In this document: in pieces, positions 3,704-42,078 of the stretch
Layout of the letters: the number at the start of each line of letters is the position of its first letter
Numbering within the stretch: the first letter of the stretch is position 1
NCBI GenBank assembly: GCA_013822425.1
Contig: PNKL01000006.1
Span: 21,675 to 85,674 of the forward strand
From: Gemmatimonas sp.
GTDB taxonomy: Bacteria > Gemmatimonadota > Gemmatimonadetes > Gemmatimonadales > Gemmatimonadaceae
DNA length: 64,000 nucleotides
Direction: 5' to 3'
Notes under the pieces: generated by a model
What the model was told of the DNA's origin: nothing
The model's input: the letters and a program-made list of their open reading frames with translations, nothing else
Databases searched by the model: none
Translations under genes and position numbers: made by a program

Positions 3704-3761
3704 GCCTTCTAGTGTCGGAACGACATGCCGGAGACTTGACGGGGGAAGTCGCCAACGGCTC

Positions 3762-3776
3762 TGGCACGGTTTCTGC
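3762..3776 (+). promoter_or_regulatory. Sigma54 -24/-12 promoter upstream of flgL
   Basis: TGGCACGGTTTCTGC has GG and GC at the consensus spacing (TGGCACG-N4-TTGC). It lies 47 nt upstream of the flgL ATG. Confidence 0.55.
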
Positions 3777-3822
3777 GACCATTCGGCCCGCAGGTGCTGG
3801 CGACCCATGCCGAGGGGATCAA

Positions 3823-8200: not shown

Positions 8201-8381
8201 GGCATTCCGCGGGACGGTGCTATGGGGCGAGTCCGACCCCGAGGAAGTGGTGGCGCAACTCGAGCGTGCGTACGACGACCGTGCGGAGGCCGCCCGGCGC
8301 GGCGCCGAGGGCGCCAGGCTCCTTGCGCAGCTCCCGTGGGCGGCCCAGGCCGCCGAACTTCTGCGGCAGCTCGATGTCTGA
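5295..8381 (+). CDS. Three-module protein: N-terminal TPR repeats + GT9 (heptosyltransferase)-like domain + C-terminal GT4/GT1-type glycosyltransferase
   Basis: TPR repeats at aa ~40-330 (repeated A..Y...I...P.YAEAH.NLG pattern). GT9-like at aa ~350-650 (HTEQGFGDSIQFVRYLPLL, DLVITVDTSVAHLAGALGRPVWVLLP). GT4 at aa ~690-1028 (GGKLEFRKGQD, NRSEGGTNLVAMEAMACGVPTI). The start may instead be the ATG at 5325 (MKVKQKKPE). Confidence 0.85.
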   Translation: MPRCQECAILMKVKQKKPETARASVPVVNAIPGKERFDAAVRLHLAGNHDAALAAYDDVIARWPAYAEAHHNAGTIRAQRGEFDHAIAHLRHAISQRATYAEAHHSLGLTLHLAGSLREAIPSFRRAVELNPASLDWWTDLAMALTAEGFVAEGLAANDRALALAPDSAQARANRAVPLRGLQRLQEAIEACRASLALRPDHVATLVNLGMIQREAGDFEGARQSLDRVLTLEPGHHKARANIVALLLQTNCHAEARDMADALLAEFPESTDAWSLLGVCAQEAGEYAIAEQCQREALARSPDDAVVQWNIAQLTLLRGDFEEGFRQFESRKKLDIFMRYNHDAPEWDGAPLDGRTLLVHTEQGFGDSIQFVRYLPLLKAYGAGRVILDECPPELAALLRSAPGVDELVVRGDPPPPFDLHTYLLSLPGLLGTTLDTVPCEVPYLAAPDRPIAAAIRQHGHGLRVGLVWGGNPAQHRDRMRSVGLAPLAPILGTPGVTFFSLQKGGAAEQLERAGDCGIVNLDRALGDFADTAAAVAALDLVITVDTSVAHLAGALGRPVWVLLPHVACWRYLLNREDSVWYPTMRIFRQNAPNAWGPPIEAAAGALVSAVLDRTMLATRLRSRNDAVPPAPRSRSPQADQARVRPHDVRRRPIEIDWPIGLTSGWGTYGLHLALALRQSERAFPVLAAAPTLQGASPLVERAVQAMVRALPAEDATDAIHLTALGNHVLGATPDEQPRRGRRVGVIFFEDTSFDESAQARARAYEVLIAGSSWNAEMLKDAGIRNVRLVLQGIDPSIFHPAPRTGIFGDRFLVFSGGKLEFRKGQDIVVEAFRRFHATHPDAMLVTAWHNHWPETMAGIDAMGYVRGFPAVRGGRCEITPWLVANGVAKDAVLDLGLQPHAVLAQVLREMDVAVFTNRSEGGTNLVAMEAMACGVPTILSANTGHLNLIGRDTCFTLERQPPVSVTTPAFRGTVLWGESDPEEVVAQLERAYDDRAEAARRGAEGARLLAQLPWAAQAAELLRQLDV

Positions 8382-9240
8382 GAGCGCCACCGTGCGCGAT
8401 TTGACGAGCCACCGTGAGCCGATGGCCCTGACCCTCACGACGCCACGCGGCGATGTCCACCGCCTCGTCTATGCCTTCGATCGCACCAGTCCGGTGCAGC
8501 ACGCCATGCGGACCCTGGTCGACGCGGGCGAGTTCTACGAACCGGAAACGACCATCCTGCTTGCCTCGGTGCTCAAGCCCGGCGACACGTTCGTGGACGT
8601 CGGCGCGCACGTGGGCTACTTCACGGTCCTCGCCGCCGCGCTCGTGGGTTCCGCCGGCCAGGTGGTGAGTTTCGAGCCCGAGCCCGGCAACTACGCGCAG
8701 CTGGTCGAGCACATCCGCCTGAACGGCTACTCACAGGTGCTGCCGATTCATTGTGCCGCGGGCGTCGTGGAGGGTGTGCGCGATCTGCACTGCAATGCGG
8801 ACAACGATGGCGGGCATGCCCTCTGGGACGTGCGGCGCCATCCGTACAACCAGCGTTCGCGTGCGGCCCCGCGCACGCATGCCGTCTTCGTGTCGACGCT
8901 CGACCGCGTGCTCGGGAACGTCGCGACCGGGCGCATCAAGGCCATCAAGATCGACGTCGAGGGCAACGAGCACGACGTGCTCCGGGGCGCCAGGCAGATG
9001 CTCGAGCGGCATTGCGTGCCCTTCGTGATCGCGGAGGTGAACCGCATGGGGCTCGAGCAGGCCGGGTCGAGTCAGGCCGCTCTTCGCGCGTTCATGACCA
9101 TGCTTGGCTACGAATGCTGGCTGCTGCAAACCGCCGAACCGCAGCTGGTGCGAGTCGAGGCCGGCCAGGAAGTCGTGACCACGGACGGTGACGGCGTGTT
9201 CAATCTGCTCTTTCGCCGCCCCGGGGCCGTCATCGGCTGA
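8374..9240 (+). CDS. FkbM-family SAM-dependent methyltransferase
   Basis: GDTFVDVGAHVGYFTVLAA...VVSFEPEP.NY..L...I..N...IKIDVEGNEHDVLRG. The ATG overlaps the upstream stop (ATGTCTGA), suggesting translational coupling to the TPR/GT gene. Confidence 0.85.
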   Translation: MSESATVRDLTSHREPMALTLTTPRGDVHRLVYAFDRTSPVQHAMRTLVDAGEFYEPETTILLASVLKPGDTFVDVGAHVGYFTVLAAALVGSAGQVVSFEPEPGNYAQLVEHIRLNGYSQVLPIHCAAGVVEGVRDLHCNADNDGGHALWDVRRHPYNQRSRAAPRTHAVFVSTLDRVLGNVATGRIKAIKIDVEGNEHDVLRGARQMLERHCVPFVIAEVNRMGLEQAGSSQAALRAFMTMLGYECWLLQTAEPQLVRVEAGQEVVTTDGDGVFNLLFRRPGAVIG

Positions 9241-9256
9241 TTCTTGCTTGCCCCGC

Positions 9257-9283
9257 TAAAGTCGGGAGCGGTCGGCTCGATAC
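9257..9283 (+). promoter_or_regulatory. Sigma28 (FliA)-type promoter of the flagellin gene
   Basis: TAAAGTCG-N11-CTCGATAC against the consensus TAAAGTTT-N11-GCCGATAA. It lies ~80 nt upstream of the fliC ATG. Confidence 0.6.
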
Positions 9284-9319
9284 TGAACTCTGAGCCAGCG
9301 ACACCAAGGCCGCTGGCCT

Positions 9320-9339
9320 CGGGGGAACGGAATCCTCCG
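9320..9339 (+). promoter_or_regulatory. Candidate CsrA-binding hairpin (GGA in loop) in the fliC 5' leader
   Basis: CGGGGG/AACGGAAT/CCTCCG forms a 6-bp stem (one G-U pair) with an 8-nt loop presenting ACGGA. A second GGA lies inside the SD AAGGAG at 9352-9357. Confidence 0.4.
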
Positions 9340-9363
9340 CGTACCACCACCAAGGAGCAGGTC

Positions 9364-10479
9364 ATGCGGATCAACACCAACGTGAGCGCCCTCGGAGCCG
9401 CTCGCAACCTCGGAACCGTGCAGAGCAGCATCGCAAAGTCGAGCGAGAAGCTGTCGTCCGGCTTCCGGATCAACCGTGCCTCCGACGACGCCGCCGGGCT
9501 TGGCGTCGCCAACACGTTCGCCAGCGACATTCGGGCGTACACGCAGGCGTCGTCCAACGCCGAGCAGGCGCAGGCGGTGTTCAACATCGCCGAAGGCGCC
9601 GCAGGATCGGTCGTGTCGCTGCTGCAGCGCATGAAGGAACTCGCGGTGCAGGCGGCGTCGGACACCGTCGACAGCAACGCCCGGGCCCGCGCGAACGACG
9701 AGTACGTCGCGCTCTACAACGAAATGGACCGGACGATCGACACGTCGAAGTTCCAGGGCAGCGTGATCATGGACGGTACGTTCGGCAAGACGGCCGGCGC
9801 GACGTCGGCGACGTTCGCGTCCGTCGGCATCTACTCCGTGACGCAGTCCTCGACGGCGACGGCCGGGACGTACACCCTGCAGTCGGCCAGTGCCACGCAG
9901 GTCAAGCTGATCAACGCCACGACGGCGCAGACGCTGACCGTGGGCCTCAGCGCCGGCACCAACAACTCGCTGAACTTCTCGGTCTTCGGCATCACGGTGA
10001 ACACCGACAACGCGATCGCCATCGGCAATACGCAGCAGCTGACCGCGACGATTACGGCCGGCGCAGCCACTGGCAACGGCACGTTCCAGGTGGGTGCGTC
10101 GGGTTCGGGCGCGAGCGACACCATCGTCACCACCGCCTCGGACTTCGACCTGGCGACCTCGCAGGGCCTCGTCGCCGCGACCAGCGTGACCACGCTCGCC
10201 AATGCGTCCGCGGCCATCACCGTGCTGGACACGGCCATCAACACGTCGAGCAGCGTGCTTGGCAAGATCGGCGCCTACCAGAGCCGGGTCGGCTCGGCGC
10301 TCAACAACCTGAAGACGCTCATCCAGAACTACCAGGCGGCCGAGAGCGTGATCCGCGACGTCGACATGGCAACGGAAATGGTGAAGTTCTCGAAGAACCA
10401 GGTCCTTGCGCAGGCCGGCACGGCGGTGCTCGCGCAGGCGAACCAGGCAGGCCAGGGCATCCTGCAGTTGTTCCGGTAG
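9364..10479 (+). CDS. fliC: Flagellin
   Basis: MRINTNVSALGAARNLG...LSSGFRINRASDDAAGL..., C-terminal ...LAQANQAGQGILQLFR, and a Thr/Ser/Ala-rich central region. SD AAGGAG 6 nt upstream. The track ORF starts upstream at 9244. Confidence 0.95.
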   Translation: MRINTNVSALGAARNLGTVQSSIAKSSEKLSSGFRINRASDDAAGLGVANTFASDIRAYTQASSNAEQAQAVFNIAEGAAGSVVSLLQRMKELAVQAASDTVDSNARARANDEYVALYNEMDRTIDTSKFQGSVIMDGTFGKTAGATSATFASVGIYSVTQSSTATAGTYTLQSASATQVKLINATTAQTLTVGLSAGTNNSLNFSVFGITVNTDNAIAIGNTQQLTATITAGAATGNGTFQVGASGSGASDTIVTTASDFDLATSQGLVAATSVTTLANASAAITVLDTAINTSSSVLGKIGAYQSRVGSALNNLKTLIQNYQAAESVIRDVDMATEMVKFSKNQVLAQAGTAVLAQANQAGQGILQLFR

Positions 10480-10538: not shown

Positions 10539-10572
10539 CGTCGGCATGGCGGGACAACCAGGGAGGGGCGGC

Positions 10573-13260
10573 GTGACGGGTCCAATCGGTACGATCAGCG
10601 GCCTGAGCAGCGGCATCCAGTGGCGCGACCTGATCGACCAGATCATGAACGCCGAACGGGCACGCACGCTCGACCCGGTCACGGCGCGCCAGGCCCAGCT
10701 GAACAGGCAGTCGGCGGCCTGGACGACCTTCCGTGGCCTGGCGGACAAGGTGCGCACCACGGCGGCGGCGCTGCGCGAGCAGACGTCGTTCGATGCGCTG
10801 TCCGCCTCGGCCACGCGGAGCGGCACGACCAGCCGGGATCTCGTGTCGGCCACGGCGGCCACCGGAGCGTCTCCCGGCTCCTACGGCGTGGAAGTGCTGG
10901 CTGTCGCGCGCGCCGAGAAGCTGGGCGGCTACTTCGTATCCGACAGCTCAGCCGCGCTGGGCATCAGCGGCTCGTTCGCGCTGAACGGCGTTTCGATCAC
11001 CATCGCCGCCGGCGACTCGCTGGTGGGCGTCCGTGACAAGATCAATGCCGCAAACACCGGGGCCGCCGCCAGCGGCGTCAGCGCCTCGATCATCTCGACG
11101 GCGGCCGGTGCGCATATCGTGCTCGCCAGCAGCGCCACGGGCGCGGCCGGCATTGACACGGTGGACGGCTCGACCGGCACGCTGCAGGCGCTCGGGTTCA
11201 TCGACGCGACCACCACGGCGAACATCGCCGCGTCGGGCGCCACGCAAACGAACCGCATGGCGAGTGCGACGGTCGCGATCGGGGCATCCCTCGGGCTCAC
11301 GATGCCGGCCGCCACGAGCATCAAGGTCGGCGGCGCGGTCGTTGCGGTCGACCTGTCGGTCGATTCGCTCACGACCATCGCCAACAAGATCAATACGGCG
11401 ACGGGCAACGCCACGGCAGCCAACGTGCAGTCGGAGACGATTGGCGGGAAGACCTCGTACCGGCTCGTCACGAATGCTACGGTTGCGACCGACGCCAGCA
11501 TCAACGCGGTTGACAGCGCGCGCGCCCTGGCGGTGCTTGGCTTCACCACGCCAGGGCACGCCGGTGTCACGCAGGTCCTCAAGAGCGCCAACACCTTTGT
11601 GGACGGCGGGACAGCGCTCAATGCGACCGGCGCGGCCCTGCTCACCGCACTCCAGACGAACGGCCAGTTGCTGGGCATCACGGCGACCGACACGGTCACG
11701 ATCACGGGCACCCGCGGCGACGGAACAACATTCACGGGGACTGTGGCGGTTGGTGCCGGCACCACGCTGCAGAACCTGGTTGACGCGGTGACTGCGGCCG
11801 GCGCCGGTGCCCGCGCGGCCACGGCTTCGCTGTCGGGCGGCCGCATCGTGCTGACCGACGGGACCAGTGGCGATTCGCAGCTCGCGCTGTCGCTGACCGT
11901 CACCAAGGCAGGCGGTGCGACCACGAGCCTCGGCGCATTCGCCACGGGGAACGGTGGCACCACGGGCGTCAGTCGCCAGCTGGCGGCCGGCATGGATGCC
12001 CAACTTCGCGTCGACGGTCAACTCGTGACGCGGGCATCGAATACGGTGTCCGATGCCATTGCGGGCGTCACGCTGAACGTGCTGGCCGCCGAACCGGGCA
12101 CGTCGGTCAACCTCTCGCTGGTCCGGGACGCCAACGTCATCGTACAGAAGGTCCAGGACTTCGTGGCCGCGTACAACGGCGTCAAGCAGTTCGTGGCGAC
12201 CTACACCGGCGAGTCGGGAACGTTTGCGCGCAATGGCGCCCTCAGGGCCATGAGTGCGGCGCTCACCAGCGGACTCCTGGGCAGCGTCACGGGCCTCACG
12301 GGCACCTTTACGACCGCTGCGGCCGCTGGCCTGCAGCACGACAAGGCGGGCACGCTCTCGCTGGACGTGACGAAGTTCGCCGGCTTCCTGCAGACGGACT
12401 TCGCCGGCGTGAAGAAAATATTCTCGATGACCGGCACGCCGAGTGACTCGGAGGTGATGTTCATCACCGCGAGCGCTGCCGCGAAGCCGACGACGTCGCC
12501 CTATGCGGTGACGATCACGCAGGCGGCGACACAGGCGGCGGTCACCGGAGCGATCTGGGCGACGTACGCCACGGCCGGGGCACCCGACACCATGACGGTG
12601 ACCGATGCGTCAACCGGGGCAGTGGGCGCCATCACGCTCGCCAATGGCGACGCGATCGCCACCACGGTGCAGAAGCTCAACTCGCTGTTCGCGACGACGA
12701 AGATGCAGCTGACGGCGACGGTGACCGGCGACAGCCGGGTGAAGATCACGGGGACGGGCTATGGCACGGGTGCCGGATTTACCGTGGCGTACACGCCCGG
12801 CGCCGGCGGCGACGGTACGGCAGCGCTCGGCATCTCCGCGCAGAGCTACACGGGCCTCGACGTCGCAGGGACGATCAACGGGGTAGCCGCGACCGGACTC
12901 GGCCAGTCGCTCACCGGCGCCGCAGGCGACGCCAGTGCCGGCATCGTGCTCCGGTACACGGGCACGACGGCGCGCGCCGCCGGCACGATTGCGTTGTCGG
13001 TCGGCGTTGGCGGTGCCCTCACCAGCGTGGCGACGGGCATTGCGGACGCGCTCACCGGCACCGCCACGCGTGCCGCCACCGACGCCACGGAGCAGGCCGT
13101 CAACCTGCGGGAACGCATTGCCGGGCTCCAGCGCCGCCTCGACATGCGGCGCGCCGCGCTTACCGCGCAGTTCCTGGCCATGGAATCGGCGCTCGCCAAG
13201 GCGCAGGCCGTGGGCGGCGCGCTCACGGCGCAGATCAACGGGCTTCAGAGAGACAAATGA
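10573..13260 (+). CDS. fliD: Filament cap protein FliD (HAP2), unusually long (~895 aa)
   Basis: N-terminus ..GTISGLSSGIQWRDLIDQIMNAERA... and C-terminus ...RIAGLQRRLDMRRAALTAQFLAMESALAKAQ... are the FliD N and C regions. GTG at 10573 follows GGGAGGGG. An alternative in-frame ATG lies at 10546. Confidence 0.85.
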   Translation: MTGPIGTISGLSSGIQWRDLIDQIMNAERARTLDPVTARQAQLNRQSAAWTTFRGLADKVRTTAAALREQTSFDALSASATRSGTTSRDLVSATAATGASPGSYGVEVLAVARAEKLGGYFVSDSSAALGISGSFALNGVSITIAAGDSLVGVRDKINAANTGAAASGVSASIISTAAGAHIVLASSATGAAGIDTVDGSTGTLQALGFIDATTTANIAASGATQTNRMASATVAIGASLGLTMPAATSIKVGGAVVAVDLSVDSLTTIANKINTATGNATAANVQSETIGGKTSYRLVTNATVATDASINAVDSARALAVLGFTTPGHAGVTQVLKSANTFVDGGTALNATGAALLTALQTNGQLLGITATDTVTITGTRGDGTTFTGTVAVGAGTTLQNLVDAVTAAGAGARAATASLSGGRIVLTDGTSGDSQLALSLTVTKAGGATTSLGAFATGNGGTTGVSRQLAAGMDAQLRVDGQLVTRASNTVSDAIAGVTLNVLAAEPGTSVNLSLVRDANVIVQKVQDFVAAYNGVKQFVATYTGESGTFARNGALRAMSAALTSGLLGSVTGLTGTFTTAAAAGLQHDKAGTLSLDVTKFAGFLQTDFAGVKKIFSMTGTPSDSEVMFITASAAAKPTTSPYAVTITQAATQAAVTGAIWATYATAGAPDTMTVTDASTGAVGAITLANGDAIATTVQKLNSLFATTKMQLTATVTGDSRVKITGTGYGTGAGFTVAYTPGAGGDGTAALGISAQSYTGLDVAGTINGVAATGLGQSLTGAAGDASAGIVLRYTGTTARAAGTIALSVGVGGALTSVATGIADALTGTATRAATDATEQAVNLRERIAGLQRRLDMRRAALTAQFLAMESALAKAQAVGGALTAQINGLQRDK

Positions 13261-21829: not shown

Positions 21830-22429
21830 ATGGCGCCCGACGGCGACACCCCGGCGCGCGCCGATGCCTGGCGCCCGGCTGACCTGGCGTTCGTGCCCCC
21901 GCCGGGACGTGCGTCCGGCGCGCCCGACCCCGTCACCGATGCCTACACGCTCGGATTCGAGGAAGGGTTTCATGAGGGCGAGATGGCCGAGCAGGCCCGG
22001 CTGCAGGCGGCGCGGCGCGCGGCCGAGGAAGCGCTCGATGTCATCCGGGTGAACGAGGAGCGGTGGAGTGACTCGATCTCCGAGAACATCGTTGCTCTTG
22101 CCGTCGCCGTGGCGCGCCACGTCGTGGACCGGGAGCTGGCGCTCGATCCAGGCATTGTGGAACACATCGTCTCGAAGGCGATTGCGGCGTTCCCGATCGA
22201 CCAGCCGGTGCGGGTCCGCGTGAACCCGAACGACCTCGCGGTGTTGGATGCCGCCGGCCTGACCGCGGGTGATGGCCTGGACGCGGAGCAGCGGCCAGCG
22301 CACTGGATCGCCGACGCCCAGATCAACACAGGCGGATGCGTGGTTGAGGGGCGCGACCGCATCGTGGACGGCCGCGTCGACACTGCCCTCGAACGTGTCT
22401 ACCGTCGACTGGCCCATCAACATGCCTAG
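21830..22429 (+). CDS. fliH: Export ATPase regulator FliH
   Basis: GFEEGFHEGEMAEQARLQAARRAAEE...IVALAVAVARHVVDRELALDP...GGCVVEGRDRIVDGRVDTALERV. The internal ATG was chosen; the track ORF overlaps the fliG 3' end. Confidence 0.8.
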   Translation: MAPDGDTPARADAWRPADLAFVPPPGRASGAPDPVTDAYTLGFEEGFHEGEMAEQARLQAARRAAEEALDVIRVNEERWSDSISENIVALAVAVARHVVDRELALDPGIVEHIVSKAIAAFPIDQPVRVRVNPNDLAVLDAAGLTAGDGLDAEQRPAHWIADAQINTGGCVVEGRDRIVDGRVDTALERVYRRLAHQHA

Positions 22430-23756
22430 CGTGTTCGAACGAAAGATCGCCCAGATGCCGCGCTTGCCGCGGTACGGCCGCGTCGTGCGCATCACGGGGC
22501 TTGTGGTCGAGGTGGTCGGCATCAACGTCGGACTCGGCGAATTGTGCCGCGTGTCGTCGCTTGCCGACTCGCACTCGGCCCTTGGCGAGGTGTGCGGCTT
22601 CCACGAACGCGGCATCCTGCTGATGGCACTCGGGGAGCTTGAGGGGATTCACCCGGGAGCCATGGTGGTGCCCCTTGGGCGCACGTCGAGCGTCGATGTG
22701 GGGCCCGCCCTCCTCGGCCGCATACTCAACGGACTTGGCGAGCCGATCGACGGCGGTCCGCGGATCGCGTATACGGACCGCATGCCGCTCGCGGCCGAGC
22801 CGCCGAATCCGTTGCACCGTCAGGTGATCTCGCGGCCGCTGGAGACCGGAGTGCGCGTGATCGATGGGCTGCTGACGATTGGCCGGGGCCAGCGCATTGG
22901 CATCTTCGCCGGTTCCGGCGTCGGCAAGAGCACCGTGCTCGGCATGATCGCGCGCCATGCGGTGGCCGACGTCAACGTGATCGCCCTCCTGGGGGAGCGC
23001 GGCCGCGAGGTCAGAGACTTCATTACCAATTCACTGGGGCCCGAGGGCCTGGCGCGGTCGGTGGTCGTGGTCGCCACCGGCGATCAGTCGGCGGTCGTGC
23101 GTGCCCGCGGCGCGCTGGTGGCGACGGCGATTGCCGAGTATTTCCGCGATCAGGGCAAGCAGGTCGTACTCATGATGGACTCCATCACGCGCGTGGCGAT
23201 GGCGTGGCGTGAGATCGGCCTCGCGGTGGGCGAACCGCCAACGACCAAGGGCTATCCGCCCTCCGTGTTCGCGGCACTGCCCCGCCTGCTCGAACGCGCG
23301 GGCAACGGGATGGGCGGTGGCATCACCGGGCTCTACACCGTGCTGGTGGACGGCGACGATTTCAATGAACCCGTGGCCGACGCCGCGCGCTCGACGCTCG
23401 ACGGCCATATCGTGCTCACGCGCAAGCTCGCCAGCGCCGGCCACTATCCGTCGGTGGACATCCTGGAGAGCCGGAGCCGGGTGAAGGACCACGTGACAAG
23501 CGTCGCCGAGCAGCATGCCGCGCTGCGCGTGCTCCAGTGCGAGGCCAGCTTTCGGGAGAAGGAAGACCTCGTGCTCGTCGGCGCGTACCAATCCGGCACC
23601 GACCCGGTGCTGGATGCGGCGATCCGCCTGCGCGACCCCATCCGTGACTTCCTGCAACAGGACGCCAAGGAAGCCACACCCTATGCCGCCACGCAGCGGC
23701 AGCTCGCCGAATTGGCGTCGCGGATCGACGCGGCCGTTGGCCGGAGGGTCGCATGA
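22422..23756 (+). CDS. fliI: Flagellar type III export ATPase FliI
   Basis: Walker A GSGVGKST, Walker B VVLMMDSITR, and ...GSITGLYTVLVDGDD... The ATG overlaps the fliH stop (ATGCCTAG). Confidence 0.95.
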   Translation: MPSVFERKIAQMPRLPRYGRVVRITGLVVEVVGINVGLGELCRVSSLADSHSALGEVCGFHERGILLMALGELEGIHPGAMVVPLGRTSSVDVGPALLGRILNGLGEPIDGGPRIAYTDRMPLAAEPPNPLHRQVISRPLETGVRVIDGLLTIGRGQRIGIFAGSGVGKSTVLGMIARHAVADVNVIALLGERGREVRDFITNSLGPEGLARSVVVVATGDQSAVVRARGALVATAIAEYFRDQGKQVVLMMDSITRVAMAWREIGLAVGEPPTTKGYPPSVFAALPRLLERAGNGMGGGITGLYTVLVDGDDFNEPVADAARSTLDGHIVLTRKLASAGHYPSVDILESRSRVKDHVTSVAEQHAALRVLQCEASFREKEDLVLVGAYQSGTDPVLDAAIRLRDPIRDFLQQDAKEATPYAATQRQLAELASRIDAAVGRRVA

Positions 23757-24226
23757 GCACCGGACGCTTCACCTTCCGCCTGCAACGGTTGCTGGCGCTC
23801 CGCCAGATGGCCGAGAACGCCGCCTCCGTCACGCTGGGCTCGGCCCGGGCCGCAGCCAGCGCGATCCATGCCACCCAGACCGCGCTCTCCGCCCGTCGCG
23901 CCGTCGCGCGGGACACCGTATTTCCGTCGGCTGGCGCCACGCGCGGCGTGGCCGAGCTGACGCGCGCCGCGCTCCTCGTGGAGCGAATTGACGGGCACGT
24001 CGTGGAGGCCGACAAGGCGGCGCGTGGTGCGGACGAGCGGGTGCGCGACTCGCTGGCGCGCCTCGGTGAGCGTGTGCAGGCACGGCGCATGCTTGAACGG
24101 CTGCGCGAGCGCCACTTGGCGGAATGGACCCTCGGCGTCGAACGGCATGAACGTGAGGTCATGGACAGCCTGGCGCGCAGGCCGTCAGCTCCCGGCAGTG
24201 AGACGACCACCCCTACCAACGGCTGA
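23753..24226 (+). CDS. fliJ: Export chaperone / ATPase stalk FliJ
   Basis: RFTFRLQRLLALRQMAENAA... is a coiled-coil of 157 aa. ATGA overlap with fliI. Canonical position. Confidence 0.7.
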   Translation: MSTGRFTFRLQRLLALRQMAENAASVTLGSARAAASAIHATQTALSARRAVARDTVFPSAGATRGVAELTRAALLVERIDGHVVEADKAARGADERVRDSLARLGERVQARRMLERLRERHLAEWTLGVERHEREVMDSLARRPSAPGSETTTPTNG

Positions 24227-24229
24227 ACC

Positions 24230-24964
24230 ATGCTGCGCATAGTCCTGCCCCTGCTCGTCGCCTTCGTCATCGCCGCCGGAGGTGCATCGGGCATCTACGT
24301 ACTCCAGGCCGGGAAGGCCGTGGTGGTCGCGCCGGACTCCAGCGCCATCGTCGCAGACGACAGCAGCGACGCGCCGGGCGCAAGCGATGCGCCCGAGCCC
24401 AGTGGGTCCCCGGCGCCGTCACCGCCGCCCACCGCGTCCGTCGACCCGTCGGCGATGCCCTCGGCGATGCCGTCGGCCACGCGTCCGATGCCTGCGGTGG
24501 CTCCAGCAGCGCTGGCAGTTTCGGCAGCGCCGCCAGCTTCGGCGGCTGCAGCGGCTGCAGCGGCTGCAACGGCTGCAGCGGCTCCAGCGGCTAAAGCGGC
24601 TAAAGCGCCTCCAGCGTCGGCGACCGCGGCCGCTCCTGGGCCGCGTGCCGTGCGGACAACAGGTGCGACGTCCGTGAACGCGGCAGCGGAAACAGCTTCC
24701 TCGACGACCGCAGCTTCGCCGCCCGGAACCCGCATGATCTCCTCGCCCGGCGTGTTCATTGGCGGTCGCATTTCGAAAATCTTCACGGCAATGCCGGCCA
24801 AGCAGGCGGCCAAGGTGCTGGAGCAGATGGCGGATGCGGATGTTGTGGTGATCCTCGGCAGCGTCACCGACCGCAAGGCCGCCGAGATCCTGTCATTGCT
24901 GCCCCCGCAGCGGGCGGCGACCGTCAGCAAGTCGGTGCTGACGAACAAGGGGAGCGACAAATGA
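24230..24964 (+). CDS. MotE / MgtE-N-like flagellar protein with a long Ala/Pro-rich linker
   Basis: N-terminal TM segment and a low-complexity AAAAATAAAAPAAKAAKAPP stretch. The C-terminal ISKIFTAMPAKQAAKVLEQMADADVVVILGSVTDRKAAEILSLLPPQRAATV is an MgtE intracellular N-domain-like motif. Confidence 0.65.
   Translation: MLRIVLPLLVAFVIAAGGASGIYVLQAGKAVVVAPDSSAIVADDSSDAPGASDAPEPSGSPAPSPPPTASVDPSAMPSAMPSATRPMPAVAPAALAVSAAPPASAAAAAAAAATAAAAPAAKAAKAPPASATAAAPGPRAVRTTGATSVNAAAETASSTTAASPPGTRMISSPGVFIGGRISKIFTAMPAKQAAKVLEQMADADVVVILGSVTDRKAAEILSLLPPQRAATVSKSVLTNKGSDK
24542..24613 (+). repeat. In-frame 9-bp tandem repeat (~8 units, GCGGCTGCA and variants)
   Basis: Read directly: gcggctgca x3, acggctgca, gcggctcca, gcggctaaa x2, gcgcctcca. 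It encodes an (A-A-A/P/K)n tract. Confidence 0.9.
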
Positions 24965-26844
24965 CACCGCTCACGTCGATCGTTGCGCCTGCACAGGCCG
25001 CGTCGCCGTTTGCCACGCCTGGCGAGGCGGAGCAGACGCCCGCGTTGACCGCCACGCAGCAGGGGGCGTTCGCCCGCGAGTTCTCGCGGGCGCAGTCACT
25101 GGCGCGCCCGGAAGCGCCGACCGCGTCGGCGACGGAGGAGGCGGCGACGACGGATGAGTCAGGCGATGCCGCAAGCGACCTGGTGCAACGCGCTGACGCG
25201 GGCTCTGAGCGCGGGCCGATTCAGGCGCTTCGCGAGTTGCTGCAGCGCGTGGCGGACGATTCCGCTCGCTTTCAGGACGGGGCCGAAGCCGAGCCTGCGG
25301 CGTGGGCGGATGCGGCGACTGATGCGGCGACCGATGCGGCGACCAAGGCGGCGACCAAGGCGGCGCGAGAGCCGGCCGATGCCGAAGATATCGCGGCCGA
25401 CCGGGCGAGCGCGGAGGGGGCGCTCCCTGCGTGGGACCGACGGGAAGCGGCGCGTCTCGCTTGGGAAGCGGGGCCTGTGGCGCCGCCGGCCGACCCGAGC
25501 GTCGTGATACGCGACCTCGGCGCATTGCAGCCGGAGTTTCGGGAGAAGGTGGAGCGCGTGGTGGCCCGGATGCAGGAAGAGCACGGACTGGATGTCTCGG
25601 TGGCCGAAACCTGGCGAGGCCAGCCACGGCAGGAGCACCTCTACGAACAGGGACGCGCCCGCGCCGGGGCGGTGGTCACATGGACCCGGAATTCGCGCCA
25701 CACGGAAGGACGCGCGGCAGACCTCGTCGTGAACGGACCGGCGAGCGCCGACGGCTATCGCCTCCTTGGCCAAGTGGCTCGGCAGGAAGGGTTGAAGACC
25801 CTGGGCCCTCGCGACCCCGGACACGTGGAACTTGCAGCCGCGTCGCCTGACGGTCCGAGCGCACTGCCTGGCGCTCCCAAGGTGATGGAGCTGGGAATCG
25901 CCGGGGCTGCCACGCCTCCGGGTGCTGCGGCCGTCGCCCCGGTCGCGTCCGTGGCATCGGTAGCGACTGTCGCTGCGGTCGCGAGCGTCGCGGAAGTCGC
26001 CCCGATCGCCCCGGTCGCTCCGGCTCCTCTGGGCATCCGGTCGGCGGTCGGCGCGCCGGACAGCGACGCGCGGTCGTCGAGCCGCATTCGCCGGCCCTCC
26101 GACGGGCCATCCGTTCCACAGGAGCGTGGGGCGGCGGTCACCGCGGATGCCCCGCCTGCGGCGCACCACCGCGACACGCCGCCCGCATCGGGTGGCGCTC
26201 CGGAGACTTCGGCGCGCACGGGACGCTGGTTCCGTGAAGACCGTCGTCCCACGCCACTCACCCGAGAGGCGGCAGAGATTGCCTCTGGAGGTTCGCCATC
26301 TTCCGCCCGGACGGCCTATGCAGCCGCCACGCCTACCCCGTGGCCCGTTTCAACGGCGCCTGCCGCTGGCGGACCGCTTGGCATCGATACCACGGCACGG
26401 ATCGCACAGGTCGTCGGACTCCAGGATGCACGCAGCGCGCTGCCGGTGTCGCACATGATGCTGCACCTCGACACGCCGGATGGCGGCGTGGATCGCGTGC
26501 GGGTCGCGCTTCGAGGGGCGCGCGTCGGCGCCACGATCGAACTCCACGACGGGGCGTCGGCGGCCGGACTGTCGCGACGGCTGCCGGAACTGATCACCGC
26601 GCTCGAAGCGCGCGGTCTCGAGTCCGGCCAACTGCGAGTGCAGCCCGCGACTGGGCACGATGGCACCACCCTGATGGACCTGGTCCGGGCAACCGTCGGC
26701 GACGCCTCGGCGGCCCGTGGCACGCTTTTCGCTAGTAGTGAAAGCCAGTTCTCACGATCACGCGACAATGAGCCGGGTGGGCACACCCAGCAGGAGTCGC
26801 CTCGACACCGCTCCCGCCGGGAGCAGAAGGACCCGACCCGATGA
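24961..26844 (+). CDS. fliK: Hook-length control protein FliK with an embedded M15/VanY-type (LAS) zinc peptidase domain
   Basis: It occupies the canonical slot between fliJ/motE-like and flgD-flgE. The C-terminal MLHLDTPDGGVDRVRVALRGARVGATIELHD...LPELITALEARGLESGQLRV is a FliK C-domain (Flg_hook) pattern. The middle region carries the SRHTEGRAAD and DPGH peptidase signatures. Confidence 0.75.
   Translation: MTPLTSIVAPAQAASPFATPGEAEQTPALTATQQGAFAREFSRAQSLARPEAPTASATEEAATTDESGDAASDLVQRADAGSERGPIQALRELLQRVADDSARFQDGAEAEPAAWADAATDAATDAATKAATKAAREPADAEDIAADRASAEGALPAWDRREAARLAWEAGPVAPPADPSVVIRDLGALQPEFREKVERVVARMQEEHGLDVSVAETWRGQPRQEHLYEQGRARAGAVVTWTRNSRHTEGRAADLVVNGPASADGYRLLGQVARQEGLKTLGPRDPGHVELAAASPDGPSALPGAPKVMELGIAGAATPPGAAAVAPVASVASVATVAAVASVAEVAPIAPVAPAPLGIRSAVGAPDSDARSSSRIRRPSDGPSVPQERGAAVTADAPPAAHHRDTPPASGGAPETSARTGRWFREDRRPTPLTREAAEIASGGSPSSARTAYAAATPTPWPVSTAPAAGGPLGIDTTARIAQVVGLQDARSALPVSHMMLHLDTPDGGVDRVRVALRGARVGATIELHDGASAAGLSRRLPELITALEARGLESGQLRVQPATGHDGTTLMDLVRATVGDASAARGTLFASSESQFSRSRDNEPGGHTQQESPRHRSRREQKDPTR
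25309..25368 (+). repeat. In-frame 12-bp tandem repeat (5 units) in the fliK N-terminal region
   Basis: gatgcggcgact, gatgcggcgacc x2, aaggcggcgacc, aaggcggcgcga. It encodes DAAT-DAAT-DAAT-KAAT-KAAR. Confidence 0.9.
25501..25833 (+). other. M15/VanY-like LAS metallopeptidase domain inside fliK (aa ~181-291)
   Basis: ETWRGQPRQEHLYEQGR (R..Q..L...G), SRHTEGRAAD (SxHxxGxAxD) and PRDPGHVEL (DxxH). These are the H/D/H zinc-ligand signature of D-Ala-D-Ala carboxypeptidase and endolysin-type peptidases. Confidence 0.7.
25933..26022 (+). repeat. Degenerate in-frame 9-bp repeat (10 units, GTCGCnnnn) in the fliK central region
   Basis: gtcgccccg gtcgcgtcc gtggcatcg gtagcgact gtcgctgcg gtcgcgagc gtcgcggaa gtcgccccg atcgccccg gtcgctccg. 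It encodes (V-A-x)10. Confidence 0.85.
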
Positions 26845-27518
26845 CTGCATCGATTGCCGCGCCGGCCGCATCTGCCGCCACCAGCGGATACCTCCCGACT
26901 TCGGGAACCGCCGCCTTGGGCGGCGCGATGGGAAAGGATGCGTTCATGAGACTGCTGATCACGCAAATGACGAATCAGAACCCGCTCAATCCGCAGGATG
27001 GCACCCAGATGGCATCGCAGCTCGCGCAGTTTTCGGCGCTCGAGCAGATGACGAACATGAATGCGACCCTCCGGGACCAGGCCGCCGCAAACGCGGCGCT
27101 CGCTGGCGCGGTGAACAACGCGTCGGCCATGACCCTGCTCGGCAGGGAGGTGACGGTGGCCAGCGACCAGATCGCCGGCGGCGCGACAGGCACGACGTCG
27201 GTTGCAGCCGAGATAGGGACCGGAGGAGGGAATCTCACGGTGCGCATCGTGGACGCGAACGGTGCGACGTTGACGACAAAACTCGTCGGCCGGGTTGGCA
27301 GTGGCCGCACGGACGTTGCCATCGGCGACCTCACGAGCAAGCTCCCCGCCGGCACGTATCAGGTGGTGTTCGACCTCGCCGCGGGCACGGCCGGGGTGAC
27401 GCATCCAACACCGCTCGTCACGGCGACGGTGGATGGCGTTCGTTTCGGCCCGAACGGAGTCGACATCACCAGCGGATCTCTCTCGTTCCCCATCGGCTCC
27501 ATCGTCTCCGTCCGCTAA
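26841..27518 (+). CDS. flgD: Hook capping/scaffold protein FlgD
   Basis: ...MGKDAFMRLLITQMTNQNPLNPQDGTQMASQLAQFSALEQMTNMN... ATGA overlap with fliK. Confidence 0.9.
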   Translation: MTASIAAPAASAATSGYLPTSGTAALGGAMGKDAFMRLLITQMTNQNPLNPQDGTQMASQLAQFSALEQMTNMNATLRDQAAANAALAGAVNNASAMTLLGREVTVASDQIAGGATGTTSVAAEIGTGGGNLTVRIVDANGATLTTKLVGRVGSGRTDVAIGDLTSKLPAGTYQVVFDLAAGTAGVTHPTPLVTATVDGVRFGPNGVDITSGSLSFPIGSIVSVR

Positions 27519-30661: not shown

Positions 30662-31012
30662 ATGACCGACACCACCCTGCCATCATCAGGCGAGAACGCC
30701 GCCGCACCGGCCAGCTACCCCGAACTCGCGTCGGTCGGGGCCATGCCCTCGGAGGTCTCGCTGTCGATGCTGCTCGACCTGCCCCTGCCGGTGTCGATCG
30801 AGCTGGGGCGCACCCGCATGACGGTTCAGGAGATTCTCCGGCTCGGGCGCGGCTCGGTGGTCCAGCTGGAGCGCATGGCGGGTGAACCGATTGACATCTA
30901 CGTGGGCGATCGACGCTTCGCCGAGGGCGAAGTGGTCGTCATCAACGAGCACTTCGGCATCCGCGTCACGCGCATCATCTCGCCGATCACCGCGGCGGAG
31001 ATCGCGTCGTGA
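30662..31012 (+). CDS. fliN: Switch protein FliN
   Basis: LLDLPLPVSIELGRTRMTVQEILRLGRGSVVQLERMAGEPIDIYVGDRRFAEGEVVVINEHFGIRVTRI (SpoA domain). Confidence 0.9.
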   Translation: MTDTTLPSSGENAAAPASYPELASVGAMPSEVSLSMLLDLPLPVSIELGRTRMTVQEILRLGRGSVVQLERMAGEPIDIYVGDRRFAEGEVVVINEHFGIRVTRIISPITAAEIAS

Positions 31013-31034
31013 CACACCCGGCGGGGTCTCCCTC

Positions 31035-32240
31035 GTGACGCTCGGATCGTTCCTTGGAGTGCTCGGCACGCTGGGGCTGGTGCTGGGACTCCTGCTGCTC
31101 ACCCTCAAGCTGATCAGGCGCTATCTGCCGCACGCCGGCGGCACCGGCACCCAGGTGGGCATCGAGGTGGTGCAGCGCGTGGCCTTGGGCCCGCGCCAGG
31201 GTATCGCCGTGGTGCGCATCGGCGAGCAGCAGGTGGCGGTATCCGTCGGCGACGGCGGCGTGCATTTCATTGCCCACATCAACCCCCCGGACGATGACGC
31301 GCCGGCCGCAGCGCCCGCGCCGGCGGACCACGGCGTCGCCGCGTTGCCTGACTCCGGCCACTCCAGGTTCCATCGTCTGCTCGACGTTGCCATGCGCCTT
31401 TCCGTGGGGATCGGCCTGCTGTTCGCGGCAGGCTCGGTGAACCCGGCGGTCGCGCAGGCACCGCCACGGTCGGCGGCGACGGCGAGTCCGGCGGCTGCGG
31501 CGCGGCCGGCAGTCCCCGCGACCGCCGCACCGATCGCCCGAACGGACACCATGCTGACCCGGCTTGCCCCGCGCCTCGACCTTCGGGTCGGCAATGAGCA
31601 GGCCGGCGGCCTCCGCCTGTCGGGAACCGTGGGCATCGTGGTGATGATGGGCCTGCTGACGATGCTGCCCATGCTCGTGCTGATGATGACAGGCTTCACG
31701 CGCATCCTCATCGTGCTGCACTTCCTGCGGCAGGCGATCGGTGCGCAGAGCACACCGCCGGCCCAGCTTGTCGCCGGCCTCGCCCTGCTCCTCACGGGCT
31801 TCGTGATGGCGCCGACGCTGCGCGAGGTGAATCGCACGGCGCTCGAGCCCTGGATGGATGGCAGGATCGAGCAGGCGCAGATGCTCTCCCTTGGCGTGCA
31901 GCCGTTTCGGGCGTTCATGCTGCGACAGACGCGCACGCAGGACCTCGCGATGTCCATGAAACTGAGCCGGCTCGCGCCCGTCGCGCGCGCCGAGGACGTG
32001 CCGCTCGTCGTGCTCGTCACCGCGTTCGTCACCAGCGAGCTGCGCGTGGCGTTCCAGATGGGCTTCGCGCTCTTTCTCCCGTTCATCGTCATTGATGTCG
32101 TCGTCGCCTCGGTGCTGATGTCGATGGGCATGCTGATGCTGCCGCCGGCGATGATCTCGCTCCCGTTCAAGCTGCTGCTGTTCGTGCTGGTCGACGGGTG
32201 GGCGCTCCTCACCCAGAGCCTGATCCAGAGCTTCCGCTGA
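31035..32240 (+). CDS. fliP: FliO and FliP encoded in one uninterrupted reading frame (FliO module ~31035-31391, FliP module from ATG 31392)
   Basis: FliO part: a TM segment plus IEVVQRVALGPRQGIAVVRIGEQQVAVSVGDGGV. There is no in-frame stop before MRLSVGIGLLFAAGSVNPAVAQA (a FliP-type signal peptide). The FliP core follows: ...MTGFTRILIVLHFLRQAIG...FKLLLFVLVDGW. Confidence 0.85.
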   Translation: MTLGSFLGVLGTLGLVLGLLLLTLKLIRRYLPHAGGTGTQVGIEVVQRVALGPRQGIAVVRIGEQQVAVSVGDGGVHFIAHINPPDDDAPAAAPAPADHGVAALPDSGHSRFHRLLDVAMRLSVGIGLLFAAGSVNPAVAQAPPRSAATASPAAAARPAVPATAAPIARTDTMLTRLAPRLDLRVGNEQAGGLRLSGTVGIVVMMGLLTMLPMLVLMMTGFTRILIVLHFLRQAIGAQSTPPAQLVAGLALLLTGFVMAPTLREVNRTALEPWMDGRIEQAQMLSLGVQPFRAFMLRQTRTQDLAMSMKLSRLAPVARAEDVPLVVLVTAFVTSELRVAFQMGFALFLPFIVIDVVVASVLMSMGMLMLPPAMISLPFKLLLFVLVDGWALLTQSLIQSFR

Positions 32241-40145: not shown

Positions 40146-40937
40146 ATGAATCCCGCCCTTCGTACCGCCGCCACCGGCATGGCCGCACAGCAGACGCGAA
40201 CCGAGGTCATCGCGAACAACCTCGCCAACGTCAATACCACCGGATTCAAGCGCAGCCGCGCCGACTTCGTCGACCTGCTCTACCAGACCGTGCAGGGCGC
40301 GCAGACGGTCGGCACCGCCGACGCCACCACGGTGCCCTCGATCCAGGTCGGCCGCGGGACGCGACTGTCCGGCATCACCCGATTGCACTCGCAGGGCGCG
40401 CTGGAACAGACGCAACGCCCGCTCGACCTGGCCATCGACGGCGACGGGTTCTTTCAGGTGCAGCTCGCCAATGGCCAGTTGGCCTACACGCGCGACGGGT
40501 CGTTCCAGATTTCCGACCAGGGGACGATCGTCACGAGCGAGGGCCTCACGGTGCTGCCGGGCATCAAGGTGCCGGCCGACATCGCCGGGGTCTCGATCTC
40601 GGCCAACGGCATTGTCTCGGGATCCTCTTCGGCCAGCACCGGCCAGACGACGGAACTCGGGCGCATCGAACTGGCCCGCTTTGCCAACCCAGCGGGTCTC
40701 CAGGCGGTGGGGCAGAACCTCTATGTCGCGACCCCCGCCAGCGGCGACGCCGCCACGGGGTTCCCGCAGGATGACGGAATGGGGCGCCTGCAGCAGGGTT
40801 ACCTGGAGAGCAGCAATGTCGAAATTGTCCAGGAGATGGTCGACATGATCACGGCGATGCGTGCCTACGAGATCAACTCGAAGGCCATCAAGAACAGCGA
40901 GTCGATGGCCGACATCGCGAACAACCTGGTGCGGTAA
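40146..40937 (+). CDS. flgG: Distal rod protein FlgG
   Basis: MNPALRTAATGMAAQQTRTEVIANNLANVNTTGFKRSRADF... and ...LESSNVEIVQEMVDMITAMRAYEINSKAIKN. Confidence 0.95.
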   Translation: MNPALRTAATGMAAQQTRTEVIANNLANVNTTGFKRSRADFVDLLYQTVQGAQTVGTADATTVPSIQVGRGTRLSGITRLHSQGALEQTQRPLDLAIDGDGFFQVQLANGQLAYTRDGSFQISDQGTIVTSEGLTVLPGIKVPADIAGVSISANGIVSGSSSASTGQTTELGRIELARFANPAGLQAVGQNLYVATPASGDAATGFPQDDGMGRLQQGYLESSNVEIVQEMVDMITAMRAYEINSKAIKNSESMADIANNLVR

Positions 40938-40939
40938 CC

Positions 40940-41380
40940 GTGACGGCGCATGCGATTGGCCTCTGCTGGCTCCTCCTCCTCGCAACGGCCGTTCCGTCGG
41001 CACACGCGCAAGCGAGCGCGGCGACCGGCACGTCCGCCGCACCGCAGGCGACGCGCGACCTGGGGCGGGGGCATGTGCTGGCAGCCTCCGACATCAGGGC
41101 CGATGCTCCCGACCCGCAGGGCCCGCAATTGGTCGGATGGATCACTCGCCGAGTGGTCCGGGCCGGCGAGCCGCTTCGCGCGCCTGCCATTGCGCCGGCG
41201 CCGCTCGTGCGCGCCGGCACCCCAGTCACCGTGCAGTTCGTGACGGCCGGCCTGACGGTCGCGCGAGAAGGCACGGCACTGACGACGGGCGCCTTCGGCG
41301 ACCGCGTGCACATCCGGCTCGACGAACACCGGTCGCTCGACGGCGTGGTCGCCGGTCCTTCCATGGTACGCATCCCATGA
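40940..41380 (+). CDS. flgA: P-ring assembly chaperone FlgA
   Basis: Signal peptide, then the SAF-like G..L...D......V.AG.PL and the C-terminal VRAGTPVTVQF...GLTV...G.AL..GA.GDRV.I pattern. Confidence 0.8.
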   Translation: MTAHAIGLCWLLLLATAVPSAHAQASAATGTSAAPQATRDLGRGHVLAASDIRADAPDPQGPQLVGWITRRVVRAGEPLRAPAIAPAPLVRAGTPVTVQFVTAGLTVAREGTALTTGAFGDRVHIRLDEHRSLDGVVAGPSMVRIP

Positions 41381-42078
41381 GAACAGGTTCTCTCGCCGCT
41401 CGGCAGCCCGTGCTCGGCCGCAAGACGGCGTGCAGCGTGCGCGCGTGCGCGTGGGCGGCGCTGGCGGTGTCCCTCCACGCGCCGGCGGTCATGGCCCAGG
41501 GACGCGGCGGGAGAGCCGCTGCCGCCTCGGTGGCAGACTCGCTGTCGCTGACCCCGCAGGGCCGCCAGTCGTGGACTTCGGACAAGATGCGCTTCCAGAT
41601 CGGCGACATCGTGACGATCGTCATCAGCGAACGCACGCTGGCGTCGGCCAGGCTCACGGACAACAGCTCCGACGCGCGCCAGAAACAGATGGGGCTGGAC
41701 ATTGAACCGCCCGCAGGCCCGACCGGCCCGTCGAAGAGCATCGCGGCGACGGTGGACGTCAGCAGCGCAGGCGACTCCCGCAAGCGGGGCCAGGTCATGC
41801 GCCAGAACGACTTCCAGTCGCTCGTGAGCGCGAGGGTCGTCGCGATATCGCCCGGGGGGATGTTGAGAATTCGCGGTCACAAGCTCGTCAATGTCGACAA
41901 GAACCAGCAGGACGTCGTGATCAGCGGATGGGTTCGGCCCCAGGACATTGCCGTCGGCGACAACACGGTCGAATCGGCGCGCCTCGCCGATGCCGAAATC
42001 CAGTACGCGCAGAAGGGGGCCCTCGGGCGTCCGCGTGCCGGCATCATCTCCCGCCTGCTTGGTGCGCTGTGGCCATGA
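41377..42078 (+). CDS. flgH: L-ring protein FlgH
   Basis: ...FQIGDIVTIVISERT.AS...DFQSLVSARVVAISPGGMLRIRGHKLVNVDKNQQDVVISGWVRPQDI..DNTV.S.RLADAEI.Y. ATGA overlap with flgA. Confidence 0.85.
   Translation: MRTGSLAARQPVLGRKTACSVRACAWAALAVSLHAPAVMAQGRGGRAAAASVADSLSLTPQGRQSWTSDKMRFQIGDIVTIVISERTLASARLTDNSSDARQKQMGLDIEPPAGPTGPSKSIAATVDVSSAGDSRKRGQVMRQNDFQSLVSARVVAISPGGMLRIRGHKLVNVDKNQQDVVISGWVRPQDIAVGDNTVESARLADAEIQYAQKGALGRPRAGIISRLLGALWP

Follow-up and report, generated by a model that had tools for sequence, protein, structure and literature searches.

A zinc peptidase domain of the M15 type embedded in the flagellar ruler protein FliK of Gemmatimonadota, with a possible role in opening the peptidoglycan for the rod

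The hook-length ruler protein FliK of Gemmatimonadota carries a zinc peptidase domain of the M15/LAS type inside its chain. We describe this architecture in a stretch of 64,000 nucleotides from Gemmatimonas sp. (contig PNKL01000006.1 of assembly GCA_013822425.1, positions 21,675 to 85,674; hereafter the window), in which the open reading frame (ORF) at the fliK position encodes a protein of 627 residues. The fusion occurs across the phylum as a single ORF in the fliK slot. In beta- and gamma-proteobacteria, the dual-domain FlgJ is responsible for opening the cell wall during flagellar assembly, and separate lytic transglycosylases, SltF in Rhodobacter and PleA in Caulobacter, serve single-domain FlgJ proteins. 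Judging from sequence comparisons and structural models, we consider it on balance probable that the FliK-borne M15 peptidase is delivered through the flagellar type III system and opens a passage for the rod in the peptidoglycan. By analogy, the M15 domain may thus supply the wall-opening activity that resides in dual-domain FlgJ in beta- and gamma-proteobacteria. The features on which this reading is built are compiled in Table 1.

A preliminary description of the window, made from the nucleotide sequence alone, had assigned a full LAS/M15 signature to residues ~181-291 of the ORF, and the assignment stands. The domain contains the motif R219..R223-Q224..L227..Q230-G231-R232 upstream of S245-x-H247-x-x-G250-x-A252-x-D254, followed by D285-P-G-H288. 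In an alignment of 37 homologues (alignment A1), the M15 motifs are invariant or nearly so: the first zinc His, D285-P-G-H288 and R219/R223-Q224/Q230-G-R232 are invariant, and the position of D254 is occupied by Asp in 36 of the 37 sequences. A single-sequence phmmer search of the excised segment against the Protein Data Bank (PDB) found Ply500 (E=3.5e-5), LysB4 (2.4e-4) and the Streptomyces Zn DD-peptidase (2e-3). In the resulting alignments, H247 and D254 fall on the SxHxxGxAxD motif, which appears in Ply500 as SNHNYGVAVD and carries the zinc ligands of that enzyme, and H288 falls on the PGH motif of the Streptomyces enzyme (1lbu). By alignment to these two enzymes, H247, D254 and H288 form the H-x6-D plus distal His arrangement of the zinc ligands. 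A profile built from 24 family members matched Ply500 at 1.6e-12 and LysB4 at 1e-11, and it also reached T5/RB49-type endopeptidases, LdcB, VanXY and the Hedgehog N-domains, in other words the whole LAS superfamily. All 24 members matched PHROG endolysin families (best 2e-19), and a tblastn search against phage genomes returned only endolysin genes among the matches listed (32-48% identity), mostly annotated as L-alanyl-D-glutamate endopeptidase or CwlK.

Structure prediction, which the preliminary description had proposed as a check, agreed with these results. The AlphaFold2 (AF2) model of the M15 domain has a mean predicted local distance difference test (pLDDT) score of 88.4, and a Foldseek search with the domain model placed it in the LAS fold, with LAS/M15 folds alone among the top matches and 2vo9 first (E=1.7e-7, template modelling (TM) score 0.66). 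The best fold matches of the domain in the PDB were Ply500, LysECD7, LysB4 and ChiX, followed by VanXY, LdcB and VanY. The match of motifs and fold is far above chance. We therefore regard the M15 domain, as far as its motifs can tell, as catalytically intact and of the phage-endolysin/CwlK L-Ala-D-Glu endopeptidase type, and the bond that it would cleave is most likely L-Ala-D-Glu, to judge from its nearest relatives.

The comparison with the Peptidase_M15 and VanY profiles, also proposed earlier, succeeded in part: the excised segment gave weak VanY and Peptidase_M15_3 matches, but the curated threshold was missed, and scans of the full-length protein with Pfam and NCBIfam overlooked the M15 domain entirely. 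Among the 24 family members, Peptidase_M15_3 matched 16 and VanY 13, with E values no better than 3e-5. The position below the Pfam thresholds indicates a divergent subfamily that is overlooked by routine annotation; for the same reason, precomputed annotation of these proteins displays only PF02120 or nothing. The automated public names of the homologues alternate between 'FliK' and 'M15 family metallopeptidase'.

The identity of the ORF as a FliK orthologue is supported by its position, its C-terminal type III secretion substrate-specificity switch (T3S4) domain and a putative N-terminal motif of the export type. A FliK C-domain had been proposed at residues ~476-565, and the AF2 model contains a confident H-EEE-HH-E alpha/beta domain at residues 477-565 with pLDDT >90. 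In the Foldseek list for the full-length model, Salmonella FliK-C (2rrl, E=1.1e-3, prob 1.0) and the switch domain of PscP (5cuk, E=9.8e-3) come directly after the peptidase match. The Pfam family Flg_hook (PF02120), against which the preliminary description had suggested a search, matched residues 495-565 of the 627-residue protein with E=1.4e-4 and 22.1 bits, below the gathering score of 29.8, and the isolated C-terminal domain with E=6e-6, still below that score. The family as a whole fared better, since 17 of the 19 aligned homologous C-terminal blocks matched Flg_hook (best 5e-11). A profile of the C-terminal block run against the PDB sequences matched only spurious de novo proteins. As this sequence comparison was uninformative, the fold comparison is needed to tie the C-terminal block to FliK-C and PscP. 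When all six frames of the window were scanned with the FliK-C and M15 profiles of the family, neither a second fliK nor a second M15 copy was found.

The remainder of the chain is predicted to be largely disordered, as in FliK, with pLDDT <50 over most of residues 1-175 and 297-475. Across the loci, the linker between the M15 and FliK-C domains measures 92-313 residues (median 134). Two repeats lie in these disordered parts. Directly after the peptidase domain, a (Val-Ala-x)n block at residues ~323-357 is seen throughout alignment A1 (columns ~900-945), where x is mostly Arg, Gln, Glu, Ser or Thr, and AF2 gives it no confident structure; the ruler protein has here a three-residue hydrophobic period that is kept across the phylum. 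We considered the block as a membrane helix, as it holds the highest Kyte-Doolittle 19-residue window of the protein (1.97 at residue 323), and rejected this candidate because the x positions of the homologues are mostly Arg, Gln or Glu. In the disordered N-terminal region, a 12-nt tandem repeat of 4.8 copies (25309-25365, residues ~117-135) encodes DAAT/KAAT, and it may be a source of ruler length variation.

At the N terminus, F37 is nearly invariant in alignment A1 and is followed four residues later by Leu or Phe. Of 33 full-length homologues, 32 have an F-x3-[LFMIV] motif within their first 90 residues, usually at positions 31-46. FlgD and FlgE have their gate-recognition motifs at residues 36-40 and 39-43, respectively (PMC8983047), and by this comparison the N terminus of FliK-M15 appears to resemble early-subunit export signals at the level of the motif. 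No Sec-type signal is evident in the FliK-M15 protein, which leaves the flagellar type III apparatus as the only plausible route out of the cytoplasm. Cys is rare in the family, with five in 23,913 residues and none in the 3,124 residues of the M15 domains, and the Cys-free M15 domain appears compatible with type III export.

The genomic setting is that of fliK, and the 627-residue ORF that had been placed in the fliK slot is confirmed by its coordinates and by the annotation of its neighbours in the order fliI-fliJ-MgtE_N gene-ORF-flgD-flgE-fliL-fliM. Its ATG shares the ATGA at 24961-24964 with the stop codon of the upstream MgtE_N/FlbB-like gene, a purine-rich stretch lies ~10 nt 5' of the start codon, and its TGA overlaps the ATG of flgD at 26841-26844. 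The overlap of its stop with the flgD start indicates that the ORF is part of a translationally coupled operon.

The preliminary description had recommended a survey of orthologous fliK genes for the same insertion, and the insertion proved to be general. We scanned one genome per species with a search keyed on the M15 motifs and inspected the best 80 loci; relatives are encoded in at least 431 species-representative genomes. With a single exception, the best 80 loci are labelled Gemmatimonadota or unassigned. They include Longimicrobium, Longimicrobiales and Gemmatimonas, and the fusion is found in both classes, Gemmatimonadia and Longimicrobiia. The accessions NZ_CP050872, OZ257156 and OZ252109 are represented among the loci. 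The synteny fliI-fliJ-MgtE_N-[M15..FliK-C]-flgD-flgE is present in all 80 loci, and M15 and FliK-C share one reading frame in all 72 ORFs uncut by a contig end. The H/D/H zinc ligands are kept in 79 of the 80 loci. A strict pattern finds the three M15 motifs intact in 78, with L024, which has merely D-P-D-H, and L052, which has Gln for the first His, as exceptions. The distance from D254 to the D-x-x-H motif is 29-33 residues, mostly 31, with two exceptions among the 80 loci. A search of a representative library of 1.84 billion proteins, clustered at 50% identity, with the M15 profile gave 455 clusters at E<=1e-30, the listing comprising the 150 best matches, and both domains are present in 171 of the 187 proteins retrieved, the other 16 being short fragments. 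Over 60 loci, the mean pairwise identity falls from 58% in the M15 domain to 40% in FliK-C and 27% in the linker and the N-terminal region. M15 is hence the best conserved block, and with its active site kept, this indicates that selection acts on the enzyme including its catalytic residues.

Some individual entries deserve separate mention. The exceptional locus L066 (CALQGY020000005.1) belongs to a metagenome-assembled genome labelled Candidatus Kuenenia stuttgartiensis and has a flagellar cluster with fliK-M15 of the kind usual in Gemmatimonadota; mis-binning of the contig is probable. The best-scoring representative, P0053 (648 residues), contains a partial M15 at residues 170-206 upstream of a complete domain at residues 392-506, which suggests a partial internal duplication of M15, as read from its sequence. 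FliK-C was not detected in P0053, the sequence of which may be cut. The 627-residue product of the window itself has no identical entry in the protein database, its best match being ~50% identical overall. For FlgJ of this contig, in contrast to FliK-M15, the exact sequence has a database entry, as a hypothetical protein. In the source annotation, the fliK-M15 gene may not have been called, or it may have been taken for a pseudogene.

The second line of evidence concerns FlgJ. The earlier reading of the window FlgJ as a 104-residue rod-binding domain and nothing else was upheld by Pfam and NCBIfam, which match the scaffold alone, and a hydrolase domain is likewise absent from its relatives: all 120 FlgJ homologues among the matches listed are 96-157 residues long with PF10135 only. 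The combination of a rod-binding domain with GH73, typical of the muramidase-type FlgJ, is thus not present; the enzyme domain sits in FliK, and it is not GH73. Among the annotated ORFs of the 64-kb window scanned with Pfam, none has an SLT, GH73, M23 or amidase domain.

How the FliK-borne peptidase might act can be outlined from the order of its parts, which is the export region (residues 1-~50), a disordered segment, M15 (181-292), the linker, the T3S4 domain and a basic tail. With this order, the enzyme would clear the channel before the switch domain has left the cell. The flagellar export apparatus would take early substrates unfolded and with the N terminus first, and the first ~300 residues of FliK would then emerge first, at the growing rod tip in the periplasm. 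There, the M15 domain could fold, bind zinc and cut the stem peptides of peptidoglycan, most likely at the L-Ala-D-Glu bond, and the local loss of cross-links would make room for the rod and, at a later stage, for the P ring and the hook. Meanwhile, the long linker and the T3S4 domain would still be in the channel or the cytoplasm and might hold the enzyme at its site. FliK copies exported later, during hook growth, would serve as rulers and flip FlhB through their T3S4 domain. More tentatively, the two tasks could be united in an 'enzyme on a leash': M15 would drill the peptidoglycan at the rod tip while held by its own linker and by T3S4 at the export gate, and the same molecule would later measure the hook, with its folded knob outside the cap altering the tension or retention of the ruler. 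We regard this extended version as a possibility rather than an expectation. If true, a catalytic function would be seen in a ruler protein for the first time, with direct evidence that the export and activity of rulers precede hook assembly.

Several points weigh against a role of FliK-M15 in rod penetration. The FliK M15 domain of the window reaches 18.7 bits with the Pfam model VanY, for which the cut-off is 25, and every Pfam M15 model remains below its threshold for this sequence. The LAS fold is common also to the carboxypeptidases VanY, LdcB and VanXY, so that the sequence relationships suggest rather than fix the cleaved bond. Locus L052 (CANHTA010000021.1) has Gln in place of the first zinc His (S-A-Q-T-R-G-E-A-V-D); it is the only such locus of the 80 and could be due to a sequencing error or represent a naturally inactive variant. 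Since the scan for other hydrolases covered the 64-kb window, a lytic transglycosylase, either housekeeping or recruited in the manner of SltF and PleA, may be encoded elsewhere in the genome. The hydrolase activity of FlgJ enhances flagellar assembly in Salmonella without being required for it, and Bacillus needs none (PMC13584718), which means that to speak of the replacement of an essential function may be too strong. Moreover, the classical FliK would act in hook growth, when its N terminus emerges outside the outer membrane and away from the peptidoglycan. Because of this exit outside the outer membrane at the hook stage, access to the wall would be restricted to FliK copies that are exported at the rod stage.

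Four other explanations have to be compared with a role in rod penetration. An assembly, frameshift or gene-calling artefact joining a separate M15 gene to fliK might be suspected from the origin of the window in a metagenome-assembled genome and from the lack of an exact match to the 627-residue product in the protein search. We rejected it because the synteny recurs in the 80 loci and because all 72 independent uncut ORFs, drawn from different assemblies, have the two domains in a single frame, with order and genomic position unchanged; both domains are also present in 171 of 187 database proteins. The probability of an artefact is practically nil. The M15 domain could also be active on peptidoglycan at a later step, such as the seating of the P ring, the anchoring of the stator (MotB) or the assembly of a periplasmic scaffold. 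The evidence for the domain and its active site serves this explanation equally well, model organisms export FliK mainly in connection with hook assembly, and the cluster encodes FlgI, FlgH and a MotB with an OmpA-type wall-binding domain. Rod penetration is, in addition, possible without a dedicated hydrolase (PMC13584718). However, the growing hook puts the exit of FliK outside the outer membrane, which again limits access to the wall to export at the rod stage, and no sequence feature is specific to the P-ring or stator steps. We consider a later step unlikely, albeit the least unlikely of these four explanations.

A mainly mechanical, non-catalytic use of the domain appears quite improbable to us. 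M15 would then serve as a stopper or ratchet against back-sliding, or as a reference point bound to peptidoglycan, with cleavage being incidental. This would agree with its location in the ruler part, between the export region and the linker, with a linker length that varies from 92 to 313 residues when the length of the domain does not, and with the Hedgehog proteins, also among the fold matches, in which LAS domains with intact zinc sites bind or signal. Nevertheless, a pure stopper needs no invariant catalytic Asp, zinc ligands and R..RQ..QGR motif, which are retained in 79 of 80 genomes, and the closest relatives are all active lysins. Still less can be said for FliK as a secreted bacteriolytic enzyme that would attack the walls of neighbouring cells after its release through the hook. 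In its favour, the nearest counterparts of the M15 domain are phage endolysins, which lyse from without or within; flagellar export also serves other cargo of non-flagellar function, and FliK is released into the medium in model species. Yet few FliK molecules are exported per flagellum, the protein has no cell-wall-binding or targeting domain, no apparent immunity gene adjoins fliK-M15, and the strict pairing with a hydrolase-less FlgJ across the phylum fits a role in assembly better. We hold this explanation to be very improbable.

Compared with known systems, FliK-M15 combines familiar elements in a new arrangement. As in Salmonella FliK and the YscP/PscP rulers, a C-terminal T3S4 fold is preceded by a long disordered region, and with Salmonella FliK it shares the gene location before flgD-flgE and, as a candidate export signal, an F-x-x-x-hydrophobic motif at about residue 37. 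Unlike all of these, it has a folded 112-residue zinc peptidase inside the ruler, and we know of no described ruler with an enzymatic domain. The T3S4 domain is preceded by 476 residues, against 267 in Salmonella FliK (PMC6972891). The FlgJ proteins fused to a glucosaminidase or a peptidase (PMC13584718) similarly place a wall hydrolase on an early export substrate that is delivered to the rod tip. One class of FlgJ has a C-terminal peptidase domain (Nambu 2006, cited in PMC13584718), and this peptidase type indicates that a peptidase can be used instead of a glycosidase, as in FliK-M15. The differences from the FlgJ fusions are that the carrier is FliK and not the rod cap, and that the enzyme is an internal M15 (LAS) domain and not a C-terminal GH73 or peptidase module. 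The situation of SltF and PleA is comparable in that a single-domain FlgJ needs a wall-opening activity from outside; these two are, however, separate proteins that are not parts of type III substrates, and they cut glycan strands.

The closest matches in sequence and fold are the Ply500, LysB4, CwlK-type, T5, RB49 and LysECD7 enzymes. FliK M15 has the motifs R-x-x-x-x-Q-x-x-L-Y-x-Q-G-R-T-x-P-G-x-(I/V)-V-T and S-x-H-x-x-G-x-A-x-D in common with the Ply500-type enzymes. It differs from them in being shorter, with 31 instead of ~43 residues between the second ligand and D-x-x-H, in having no cell-wall-binding domain, in being embedded in a flagellar protein, and in falling below the Pfam thresholds. 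The top fold match of the full-length model was 5opz, the L-Ala-D-Glu endopeptidase ChiX of Serratia marcescens that is required for chitinase secretion. ChiX, too, is an M15 peptidase that lets a secretion process pass the wall, although it is a free enzyme and not part of a flagellar or type III substrate. ChiX works with a holin-like partner.

In the literature, we found no paper that ties FliK or hook-length control to an M15/VanY peptidase or to the flagella of Gemmatimonadota. The preliminary description was likewise not aware of a published account of such a fusion, but a peptidase on a flagellar export substrate has a precedent in FlgJ (PMC13584718). New are the carrier, FliK, and the enzyme family, M15; a wall hydrolase on a flagellar export substrate is known. 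How the wall is passed in the presence of a hydrolase-less FlgJ, and whether a dedicated enzyme is needed, is under active re-examination (PMC13584718). Gemmatimonadota would offer a phylum-wide natural experiment in this respect, in which the wall-cutting activity would have passed from a glycosidase on the rod cap to an L,D-type peptidase on the length ruler. A foldable domain of 112 residues in the measuring part also constrains ruler models with regard to transit through the channel, the timing of export and the part that measures. The compact Cys-free M15 lysin could further interest engineers of enzyme secretion via flagellar systems.

Table 1. Positions in the window of the fliK-M15 gene, its parts and selected flagellar genes.
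Feature	Position	Strand	Basis or remark
fliI	22269-23756		Upstream neighbour of the fliK-M15 ORF
fliJ	23753-24226		Upstream neighbour of the fliK-M15 ORF
MgtE_N/FlbB-like gene ('motE-like' in the preliminary description)	24230..24964	+	Directly upstream of the fliK-M15 ORF
fliK orthologue with embedded M15 peptidase	24961..26844	+	Translational coupling to both neighbours
N-terminal export region, residues 1-47	24961..25101	+	Small hydrophobic extreme N terminus, predicted helix 31-47, no Cys
F37-A-R-E-F41, F-x-x-x-hydrophobic motif	25069..25083	+	Position of the gate-recognition motif of early flagellar substrates
M15/LAS zinc peptidase domain, residues 181-292	25501..25836	+	Profiles, phmmer, AF2, Foldseek, PHROG, tblastn
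S-x-H247-x-x-G-x-A-x-D254, first two zinc ligands	25699..25722	+	Aligned to SNHNYGVAVD of Ply500
D285-P-G-H288, presumed catalytic Asp and third zinc ligand	25813..25824	+	Aligned to PGH of 1lbu
Disordered Ala/Pro/Val-rich linker, residues 297-475, presumed ruler segment	25849..26385	+	pLDDT mostly <50
(Val-Ala-x)n triplet repeat, directly after the peptidase domain	25927..26023	+	Tandem repeats, period 18 + 9 nt
FliK C-terminal T3S4 (substrate-specificity switch) domain, residues 477-565	26389..26655	+	Pfam, AF2, Foldseek
Conserved basic C-terminal tail (…PRHRSRREQKDPTR)	26794..26841	+	Consensus R-x-R-S-R-R-E-Q kept in A1
flgD, hook cap gene	26841..27518	+	Start overlaps the fliK stop
flgE	ends 28884		After flgD; fliL and fliM next
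flgJ, rod-binding (scaffold) domain only, 104 residues	43121..43435	+	Rod-binding domain / N-terminal part of FlgJ models

All of the 64-kb window is taken up by a supercluster of flagellar and chemotaxis genes. It begins with two flagellin genes, fliW, glycosyltransferase/methyltransferase genes and fliD, continues with a gene for a sigma-54 activator, flgC, fliE, fliF, fliG, fliH, fliI and fliJ, and leads through the MgtE_N/FlbB-like gene, the fliK-M15 ORF, flgD, flgE, fliL, fliM and fliN to fliO/P, fliQ, fliR, flhB, flhA, flhF, flhG and fliA. The basal-body, hook-associated and stator genes flgF, flgG, flgH, flgI, flgJ, flgN, flgK, motA and motB follow, and the chemotaxis genes cheA, cheW, cheY, cheB, cheR and cheX complete the order.

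A few of these genes are unusual in themselves. The flagellin genes (3712-4728 and 9244-10479) flank fliW, a gene for a 1028-residue protein with TPR and glycosyltransferase regions (5295-8381) and one for an FkbM-type methyltransferase (8266-9240), and the segment 3712-10479 has the appearance of an island for flagellin glycosylation or modification. With 904 residues, FliD (10546-13260) is of unusual length. A 452-residue ORF (30882-32240) matches FliO at residues 77-171 and FliP at residues 255-447; it represents a FliO-FliP fusion or else a pair of genes in one frame that no stop codon separates. The FlgH ORF (40861-42078, 405 residues) matches the L-ring family only at residues 234-405. 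For the N-terminal extension of 230 residues, Pfam gives no match, and either a start site located further downstream or a lineage-specific addition may account for it. The minus strand at the edge of the chemotaxis cluster encodes an LPP20-like lipoprotein (60630-61208) and a 609-residue protein with a caspase-like Peptidase_C14 domain (62114-63943).

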